Positions 57,446 through 59,336 of a DNA stretch of 64,000 nucleotides are shown one piece after another. Numbering within the stretch: the stretch's first letter is position 1; the number at the start of each line of letters is the position of its first letter. Under the pieces are notes generated by a model. The model worked only from the letters and a program-made list of their open reading frames with translations, searched no databases and was not told where the DNA came from. Both the position numbers and the translations under genes were made by a program. Source of the DNA: Octopus vulgaris (taxonomy: Eukaryota); assembly GCA_951406725.2 (NCBI GenBank), contig OX597818.1:82584001-82648000 (forward strand), read 5' to 3'.

Positions 57446-58245
57446 GCATTGTAGCATATGAAGAATCCGTTATGATGCTATGTATCGATAAAAAATAACA
57501 CAAATCGTTCAGACAGTGAAATACATTTTACGCCATGACAACGGAGGAAATCTAATTTTACGGGCATGAGCCATCGTCAGAGAGATTCTTCTCTTAGCGT
57601 TAGACTTCTCTTCTTTATCATCGCATGCAATTTATACCACCATTTGAATTATTGTCTTTTATAAGTTATGCCATGTTGCTCTATGCTCCTTTTATGCTAT
57701 TATGTTATATAATTTAGTTTTGGAGCTGACTAAATATTAAATGATCGTAGGAATACTGTTTTAAAATAAGAAAATATATTAGGTTTACTGGAAATGGGGT
57801 GGAAAACTGTTTCTGTAAAAACGAACAGGTTCAACTGGCTATGCAATCACGTGGGGGATGTGAAACGATACGCCTCACATAGGCACGTGCAAATGATATT
57901 CTCGGTACGAAGTAAACCTATAGCACTCTGTCAACTGGGATTAAAGGTAAAAGCAATCAAGGAGCACAAACGTATGCAAAGAACTGTGTTCATATTCCGC
58001 CAGCTTTACATATATATATATATATATATATATAGCAATAATAATTCTCTAAAAGGGATATAGACAGTAACTGCTCGATAACATAAGGGACTAAAGCCAT
58101 CTGAATATGGCTAGGGACAGGGCAGGGTGGTGGGGGTGTTACTGTTGCATTTAGCCCCAGGCGAACATCGACGTCACCAGAAAGGCTCGACACCGTCACG
58201 GTGCCCTAAACCTGCAAAGGGAGGTAATTCCCCGATGAAGCGGAA

Positions 58246-58297
58246 ACCACACACGGACCATGGTTTCAAGGTGTATTGCCTATCATCGGCGTGTGGT
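58246..58297 (-). ncRNA. Type I hammerhead ribozyme motif (U4C variant), copy 1
   Basis: Minus strand ACCACACG-CCGATGA-T-AGG(CAATACA)CCT-T-GAAA-CCATGG-TC-CGTGTGTGGT, with a palindromic stem III and GUC triplet. Confidence 0.75.
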
Positions 58298-58727
58298 AGG
58301 CCTCCGCTTCCTCGACGAATTCTCACTATGCAGGATTTCTTATATAGATTTTCAAGCAAAATACATTTGCTGATTTCGAAAATCTGTTCGAAAGCAATAA
58401 TAATTCTCTAAAAGGGATATAGACAGTAACTGCTCGATAACATAAGGGACTAAAGCCATCTGAATATGGCTAGGGACAGGGCAGGGTGGTGGGGGTGTTA
58501 CTGTTGCATTTAGCCCCAGGCGAACATCGACGTCACCAGAAAGGCTCGACACCGTCCATATTCAGATGGCTTTAGTCCCTTATGTTATCGAGCAGTTACT
58601 GTCTATATCCCTTTTAGAGAATTATTATTGCTTTCGAACAGATTTTCGAAATCAGCAAATGTATTTTGCTTGAAAATCTATATAAGAAATCCTGCATAGT
58701 GAGAATTCGTCGAGGAAGCGGAGGCCT

Positions 58728-58778
58728 ACCACACGCCGATGATAGGCAATACACCTTGAACCATGGTCCGTGTGTGGT
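58728..58778 (+). ncRNA. Type I hammerhead motif, copy 2 (GAAA shortened to GAA)
   Basis: Same motif with a 1-nt deletion in the A run, either a mutation or a sequencing error. Confidence 0.6.
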
Positions 58779-59084
58779 TTCCGCTTCATCGGGGAATTAC
58801 CTCCCTTTGCAGGTTTAGGGCACCGTGACGGTGTCGAGCCTTTCTGGTGACGTCGATGTTCGCCTGGGGCTAAATGCAACAGTAACACCCCCACCACCCT
58901 GCCTGTCCCTAGCCATATTCAGATGGCTTTAGTCCCTTATGTTATCGAGCAGTTACTGTCTATATCCCTTTTAGAGAATTATTATTGCTTTCGAACAGAT
59001 TTTCGAAATCAGCAAATGTATTTTGCTTGAAAATCTATATAAGAAATCCTGCATAGTGAGAATTCGTCGAGGAAGCGGAGGCCT

Positions 59085-59136
59085 ACCACACGCCGATGAT
59101 AGGCAATACACATTGAAACCATGGTCCGTGTGTGGT
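59085..59136 (+). ncRNA. Type I hammerhead motif, copy 3
   Basis: Same motif with one C>A change in stem II. Predicted cut 59126/59127. Confidence 0.7.
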
Positions 59137-59300
59137 TTCCGCTTCATCGAGGAATTACCTCCCTTTGCAGGTTTAGGGCACCGTGACGGTGTCGAGCCTT
59201 TCTGGTGACGTCGATGTTCGCCTGGGGCTAAATGCAACAGTAACACCCCCACCACCCTGCCCTGTCCCTAGCCATATTCAGATGGCTTTAGTCCCTTATG

Positions 59301-59336
<36 letters not shown>

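Follow-up and report, generated by a model that had tools for sequence, protein, structure and literature searches.

Non-LTR retrozymes have been described from coral, mussel, and axolotl as tandem arrays of a non-coding unit of ~350 nt that carries one type I hammerhead ribozyme (PMC7229834; bioRxiv 10.64898/2026.07.22.740005, a 2026 preprint). These elements have a GC content below 50%, strong self-pairing, and longer target duplications, and they co-occur with Penelope-like elements (PLEs). PMC7229834 and the review PMC7761336 name PLEs as the likely movers of retrozymes and propose circular templates. The link is argued in both from co-occurrence, to which the preprint adds the likeness of retrozymes to pLTRs. 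Head-to-head arms, paired fixed ends, and a tail go unmentioned in the text of these descriptions, and the main text of the preprint has no mention of head-to-head arrangement, orientation, or target site.

PLE copies themselves often comprise an inverted, 5'-truncated copy of the element and a tail of 30–40 bp at one end only (PMC8557442, PMC3846280). For the inverted arm with its one-end tail, self-priming has been proposed (PMC3846280), and two start sites have been seen in vitro (PMC11167929). In the latter study, purified PLE protein, which is predicted to be a dimer, cut and extended both strands of AT-rich DNA and used uncut RNA. Its reverse transcription started at two adjacent internal RNA sites, the spacing of which equals the tail. 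Non-coding PLE passengers are known as well, in the form of the non-autonomous PLEs of Chlamys such as MRC1 (PMC8557442). These are often multicopy and head-to-tail, like the element described here, but they are algal, their 3' ends resemble those of an autonomous partner, and canonical hammerheads are said to be absent from the group to which they belong.

The insert that we analysed lies in a stretch of 64,000 nucleotides from Octopus vulgaris (the window), and is one copy of a young, dispersed, non-coding hammerhead repeat of the retrozyme type. An earlier note on this DNA had described a TA tract, an arm, an abrupt strand switch, a second arm, and a second TA tract; its coordinates and copy counts hold, with base 58556 common to both arms (Table 1). 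We numbered the 359-nt unit from the base just after the predicted ribozyme cut. In RNA sense, the left arm runs from unit position 59 through one full turn to 222, and the right arm from position 146 through two turns to 178. Ribozyme sense is on the minus strand in the left arm and on the plus strand in the right, so both arms point outward, as had been stated. The near-identity of the copies was also described correctly: the left arm, from which the unit was derived, has no differences from it, and the right arm has four (two 1-nt deletions and two substitutions). The two ends had further been said to fall at different phases of the unit. They do differ, but they are not arbitrary, being the two fixed sites of the family (222 on the left and 178 on the right). 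No non-repetitive reading frame of at least 120 amino acids was found over the insert. The 11-bp direct repeat around the TA tract that was hit may have been the target duplication of an earlier and very short insertion.

Table 1. Coordinates of the insert and its flanking features, in positions of the window.
Feature	Position	Strand	Remarks
11-bp direct repeat, left copy	57993–58003	+	Identical 11 bases at 59334–59344
Left target tract, (TA)12	58010–58033	.	
Left arm, 523 nt, 1.46 units	58034–58556	-	RNA-sense 3' end at unit position 222, tail present; 5' truncation at 59
44-nt tail, unit positions 179–222	58034–58077	-	Left end only; inverted arms start at 58078
Type I hammerhead, family form	58247–58296	-	Read by eye; stem I covariation; predicted cut between 58256 and 58255
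Head-to-head junction	58556–58556	.	1 nt common to both arms
Right arm, 749 nt, 2.09 units	58556–59304	+	5' truncation at 146; RNA-sense 3' end at 178, without tail
Hammerhead copy, right copy 1	58729–58777	+	One A of GAAA core deleted
Hammerhead copy, right copy 2	59086–59135	+	Stem II substitution at 59112, giving a mismatch
Right target tract, (TA)14	59305–59332	.	
11-bp direct repeat, right copy	59334–59344	+	

The insert has several of the properties by which retrozymes are recognized. Its tandem unit of 359 nt (in the family, up to 15 units per arm) falls within the range of ~150–450 bp, is non-coding with no reverse transcriptase (RT) frame attached, has a GC content of 46.8% (below 50%), and is highly self-paired as a monomer (z of -5.6 as a circle), and the family has target duplications longer than 4 bp (12–13 nt). 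It has no ORF with RT and GIY-YIG endonuclease, by which an autonomous endonuclease-positive (EN+) PLE is recognized. The features of PLE-type integration are all present, namely an inverted 5'-truncated copy, a tail at one end, and an AT-rich or microsatellite target. Circles and cleavage have been shown for the metazoan retrozymes described earlier.

The hammerhead of the left arm, read by eye, has a stem I and the core CCGAUGA; its short stem II has a basal U-U, and its stem III, of 2 bp, is closed by a palindromic loop. The core change is U4C in hammerhead numbering. The 2-bp stem III and the U-U at the base of stem II also occur in axolotl HHR_Amex2. A type I hammerhead had been claimed for each full unit; the motif is indeed in the units, but the core is CCGAUGA and not CUGAnGA, and only the left-arm copy of the three has the family form. 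An Rfam search returned no matches at E≤1. Among 82 loci in which the core was read, 66 have U4C, 16 have C3U, and none is canonical, unlike the described metazoan retrozymes. The first two core bases (unit positions 326–327) have switched together across these 82 loci, being UU in old subfamilies and CC in young ones, and the canonical CU is never the majority at a locus. Nine core positions had no changes in 757 locus calls, as against 762 changes in 32,372 calls at other positions; counted per position, 0 of 9 changed versus 110 of 346 elsewhere (p 0.06). U4C is reported to reduce activity in vitro, and one viroid tolerates it (PMC3088659). Eight of nine frog retrozymes failed to cut (bioRxiv 10.64898/2026.07.22.740005). 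The dimer model and the U3-A8 core have their source in PMC4209133.

Folded as a circle in ribozyme sense, the unit reaches -113.3 kcal/mol (z -5.6), with none of 60 shuffles as low, and the opposite strand has a z of -2.3. The strong self-complementarity that had been claimed is thus borne out. Stem I of the hammerhead covaries across the aligned units. A consensus fold of seven units from families A and B pairs the two ends of the monomer, and 16 of 96 pairs have changes on both sides in these units, although kinship inflates such a count and the structure was derived from the alignment itself. Fold prediction for the single hammerhead gave a non-hammerhead hairpin, and the active hammerhead fold is therefore not the predicted minimum.

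To place the insert in its family, we searched the source genome itself (2.8 Gb, 227 contigs). The DNA search gave at least 255 matches with 40 of 640 candidates scored, many of them at 100%, and an exact 26-nt pattern spanning the cut site occurs 1,363 times. Scaling contig 1 to the genome extrapolates to ~950 loci. No PLE frame is joined to an arm in the 79 loci scanned, and in L092 a PLE piece lies nearby but is separate. The description of the repeat as young, dispersed, non-coding, and of retrozyme type agrees with these numbers. Older subfamilies have 82–95% identity to the unit. A sister family, B, yielded 502 motif hits and is similar at ~70%. One fragment (L243:4080-4318) represents a third and more remote retrozyme family, and this fragment ends at the site equivalent to 222. 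In addition, a lone, strongly diverged relative of the unit adjoins a young array at L031:245-474; no second copy of it was found, and no new family follows from it. At L187–L190, an arm of family B, microsatellites, and an apparent piece of LINE reverse transcriptase form a 1.38-kb tandem, which is a later local duplication.

The outer ends of the family are fixed at unit positions 178 and 222, 44 nt apart. Exact junctions between unit and (TA)n number 525 at position 178 and 768 at position 222 genome-wide, and reversed-pattern controls gave 0. In 40 loci picked by internal likeness and not by their ends, reading by eye found 28 two-armed loci with 178 and 222, nine one-armed loci ending at either site, and three complex ones; most of the 40 are also flanked by (TA)n on each side. 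We then paired neighbouring end junctions within 20 kb among those listed for contig 1 and the first half of contig 2, a scan that took in 64 of the 100 listed 178 ends and all 100 listed 222 ends. Outward pairs of 178 with 222 made up 44 of the 46 neighbour pairs; the remaining two were an inward pair 14 kb apart and, on contig 1, a 178/178 pair that points outward across 18.7 kb. The latter counts against the pairing of unlike ends. Last, a census of every contig-1 locus with an exact end (79 loci, selected on one end with the partner end free) contained 62 two-armed loci, all 62 outward. In 61 of these an end at 164–178 is paired with an end at 208–222, one locus has an odd end, and none pairs like with like. 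The 44-nt tail is at one end only in 61 of the 62. Both sides are (TA)n in 56 of the 62 census loci, which were selected for TA on one side. Target duplications of 12–13 nt are seen where the target is not pure TA (L044, L052, and L217). The rule of one end of each kind also applies in the old subfamilies, and family B has the same two end sites in the two-armed loci seen.

These ends contradict the view that the RNA had no fixed end. Random permuted ends in (TA)n had been set as the sign of a circular template, and the tabulated ends are instead two fixed sites paired one of each. The end phases, being fixed and strictly paired, give no evidence for a circle; they reflect the tail of a PLE. 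The proposal that both strands of a cut TA target were primed fares better, given outward arms in (TA)n with paired 178 and 222 ends. The earlier note had also named an ordinary pLTR, with fixed ends on a coding Penelope ORF, as an alternative; the ends are fixed, but no coding PLE frame is attached in the loci checked.

The end anatomy of the unit is the PLE signature of a tail plus an inverted copy, and coding PLEs of this genome have it too. In common with EN+ PLEs, the octopus unit has an inverted truncated copy, a one-end tail, AT-rich or (TA)n targets, duplications of ~10 bp, a hammerhead upstream of the ends, and presumably two internal RT start sites. Unlike them, it has no ORF, its repeat is the whole element, and there are up to 15 units per arm; its tail is 44 nt as compared with the 30–40 nt typical of EN+ PLEs, and its ends lie 178 and 222 nt past the cut site. 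PLE-A of this genome has a frame of 722 amino acids (L140) and ends +28 and +101 after its hammerhead, and PLE-B a frame of 727 amino acids and ends +42 and +112 after its hammerhead; two-armed copies of PLE-B (L235, L037, and L145) have one end of each kind. The two ends of PLE-E are ~31 nt apart. Tails of the PLEs in this genome are 31–73 nt, lengths that differ from the 44 nt of the unit, and nearly all PLE ends adjoin (TA)n. A local Pfam search did not recognize PLE-A; its homologues carry PF26215, PF01541, and PF00078.

Some of these PLEs have further features. The RT/GIY-YIG frame of PLE-B (L234–L236, L239) is intact in dozens of near-identical copies that have a canonical-core hammerhead, and its inserts are tandem (3.43-kb period) and two-armed at full length. 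PLE-B looks currently active. PLE-D (L240–L242, L244, L248) has a 781-amino acid frame in many intact copies, with an overlapping upstream frame of at least 339 amino acids, a two-frame layout that is unusual for a PLE, and a hammerhead-like motif with an apparent U3-A8 core. The hammerhead of PLE-E (L243:3290-3350, L246) has a U4C core like that of the young retrozyme and is otherwise unlike it. No stretch shared with the unit was found in the five PLE families sampled (PLE-A, -B, -C, -D, and -E), whereas in frog 24 of 57 retrozyme families are linked to a pLTR. The lack of such a stretch among these five, like the differing tail lengths, speaks against mobilisation of the unit by a PLE. A match in L243 was considered as a PLE-unit link and rejected, as it is the separate third-family fragment, 600–800 bp past the PLE end.

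As compared with the outer ends, which are fixed, the inner ends are scattered along the unit. They are 5–10 times commoner at unit positions 1–90 than at 241–300, an excess that suggests structure-driven stalling. Microhomology of at least 2 nt is present at 15 of 39 clean inner junctions, where 6.5 would be expected (p 0.001). Of 58 junctions, the 19 that scored as having an insert were mostly artefacts of subfamily differences and were excluded from this count. The two 5'-truncated arms and the microhomology support the claim that two cDNAs were joined. Copying beyond one unit, likewise claimed, is evident from the 58 of 141 arms that are at least one unit long, the longest being 5,304 nt. 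Arm depths correlate within loci (rho 0.53, n=61, p 1e-5). Both arms reach at least one unit in 16 of 61 loci (p 0.008) and at least 718 nt in four (p 0.016), and in 11 of the 61 the stops of the two arms lie within 10 nt of each other on the template (2.7 expected by permutation). In 35 loci the 178 arm reaches deeper, in 24 loci the 222 arm. The correlated depths, shared stop positions, and co-occurring long arms fit two polymerases on one RNA, and a dimer in which each active site sits at one of the two starts would account for the one-of-each rule. At one inner junction (L037:1822-1833), 12 nt match the right flank, as templated end-joining would leave.

Three other origins of the inverted arms were weighed against PLE-type priming at two sites. 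The second arm might have been copied from the first by fold-back and self-priming, an origin put forward for the inverted repeats of PLEs (PMC3846280), and five of 61 junctions do lie within 3 nt of a perfect palindrome, while the arms of L044 have variants in common. However, in 11 of 61 loci each arm has at least 10 nt of unit sequence wholly absent from the other, and therefore neither arm was copied from the other; fold-back is refuted for those 11 loci. That either arm can be the deeper also speaks against it, and fold-back offers no reason for stopping exactly at the other fixed site. We consider it very improbable. Twin priming of the L1 type, by a LINE protein on an RNA without a fixed end, was the mechanism put forward earlier. 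In L1 twin priming, two primings on two target strands give an inverted insert with microhomology, so the inverted arms and microhomology seen here are its expected outcome. But of the two L1 primings one is at poly(A) and the other at an internal site that varies, and the arms cover adjacent parts of the RNA. In the octopus unit both sites are fixed, paired, and 44 nt apart, both arms cover the same upstream sequence, there is no poly(A), the scattered inner ends do not abut a second priming site, and the pattern matches that of the PLEs in this genome, which leaves LINE-driven twin priming with next to no likelihood. An artefact of assembly or of fold-back reads is just as hard to credit. 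Assembled contigs from four sequencing runs include none that covers the insert flanks, and sequencing error could account for the two homopolymer deletions of the right arm. Nevertheless, the flanks differ, the arms are unequal, target duplications occur at several loci, and the same anatomy is found at 61 other contig-1 loci, in diverged subfamilies, and in PLEs, so the palindrome is not a fold-back of the assembly.

With PLE-type two-site priming as the preferred reading, the nature of the template can be considered. No more than 3 of the 144 passes end within 4 nt of the cut site, which is the background rate (2.1%). Without a pile-up of inner ends there, a linear, self-cut monomer was rejected as template. 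Arrays are uniform across both arms, with up to 15 units per arm and up to 14.8+8.4 and 7.2+15.0 units per pair of arms. In four of the 45 loci with more than one unit, a private change is fixed in every unit of both arms (in L060, 13 of 13 units). Across 117 loci, 67 single changes have no counterpart in the other arm at the same depth, and L044 alone has one variant unit placed equally deep in its two arms (L057, L064, and L048 were left out of this count as degraded or complex). Six loci are mosaic at a total of 8 positions (L031, L091, L055, L041, L051, and L087). Here an individual position differs among units dispersed through the array (15 of the 22 in L031). The cause could be a switch from one template to another, conversion, or damage to a base that was misread in some rounds of a circle.

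A re-ligated circle is favoured as template, though unproven, because the ribozyme is kept, the cut site is read through, and there is a one-unit bottleneck, taken together. The consensus fold, in which the ends of the monomer pair, is on its side as well. Read-through by itself is no proof of a circle because uncut RNA also serves PLEs in vitro, and the non-canonical core counts against it. Neither the L044 pattern nor the mosaics would come from a pure monomer circle; these mixed loci need template switching, a multimer, or later conversion. The shared stop positions (11 of 61), being what a linear RNA with one 5' end would give, also count against the circle. It is accordingly conceivable, if rather unlikely, that PLE two-site priming took place on an uncut linear multimer transcribed from an existing array, with a circle unneeded. 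The use of uncut RNA by PLEs in vitro (PMC11167929), the weak-looking core (U4C or C3U), the variant unit of L044, the six mosaic loci, and the excess of arms stopping at the same place (11 of 61 versus 2.7) are all in its favour. On a linear multimer, however, inherited changes should often match by depth between the arms, and this is seen in one of 45 loci, or two with L091. In addition, changes that are private yet fixed in all units require the one-unit bottleneck, linear copying can only shorten an array, yet those of 14.8+8.4 and 7.2+15.0 units persist, and the core stays conserved. Alternatively, insertions may have been short and the long arrays grown later by unequal exchange, as proposed for retrozyme arrays (bioRxiv 10.64898/2026.07.22.740005). 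The heavy-tailed arm lengths (the stop rate goes from ~2–5 to 1 per kb beyond 1.2 kb), the fit of mosaic variants to local conversion, and the post-insertion tandem of 1.38 kb at L187–L190 are as later growth would have them. Independent growth does not predict that long arms co-occur per locus, as they do (each arm reaches 718 nt or more in four of 61 loci, p 0.016), and long arrays are almost unchanged (0 of 4,363 calls in L035 and 0 of 4,937 in L060); we regard later growth as improbable.

Traces of expression were sought in sequencing-run rows, of which 20 of 24 hold part of the stretch; 14 of these were guessed to be RNA, and none is recorded as RNA. A 402-nt contig from one of four runs has an adaptor-like start of 26 nt, presumably a cDNA template-switch adaptor, followed by 374 bases of the window in ribozyme sense. 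It runs from unit position 299 over the cut site and beyond one full unit. We take this contig as a weak hint of sense transcription of the family, with no specific locus implied. Closed contigs of 390 nt in two other runs are equally compatible with a circle and with a tandem array.

Taken as a whole, the insert is probably a non-autonomous, non-coding retrozyme mobilised in trans by a PLE reverse transcriptase/GIY-YIG protein. From the insert pattern and published PLE biochemistry, a PLE protein, probably a dimer on one RNA, would cut both strands of the TA tract. One cDNA would start at each of two internal RNA sites, both would be extended upstream until they stall, and host end-joining with short microhomology would fuse the two inner ends. 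Priming at two sites in the manner of a PLE is the part of which we are most confident, and we hold it to be highly probable. Less firmly, the RNA may be a self-cut, re-ligated circle of 359 nt around which either cDNA could travel up to ~15 times; the balance tips slightly towards such a circle as the usual template of multi-unit arms. More tentatively still, a PLE dimer might grip a structured domain of the covalently closed 359-nt RNA and carry out bidirectional rolling-circle reverse transcription from the two fixed sites, with one cDNA begun per target strand and both travelling round the circle.

In literature that lay mostly outside subscription journals, we found no account of a retrozyme with inverted arms and paired fixed ends, and none of an octopus retrozyme. 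An element of this kind is known and its link to PLEs was predicted earlier; what is new is that a retrozyme bears the footprint of PLE integration and that its ends obey a strict rule of pairing. The ends betray the PLE enzyme and not the circle, and the mechanistic value of the locus thus differs from the reason given for it in the earlier note.

For the question of what moves retrozymes, the inserts carry the integration footprint of a PLE itself. The one-of-each rule over 61 loci ties the inverted arm to two start sites, with fold-back excluded in 11, and the inverted arm and tail of PLEs would, if this is true, be one event. The finding bears on PLE proteins as RNA-templated DNA writers and on circular RNA as a template, and about a thousand short, young, near-identical inserts together with several intact PLE families in one genome are ready material for work in vitro. 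If the proposed mechanism is true, a passenger would need only an RNA fold, with no sequence in common with its host element, and the octopus inserts would be genomic evidence that PLE enzymes write animal circular RNAs into chromosomes.
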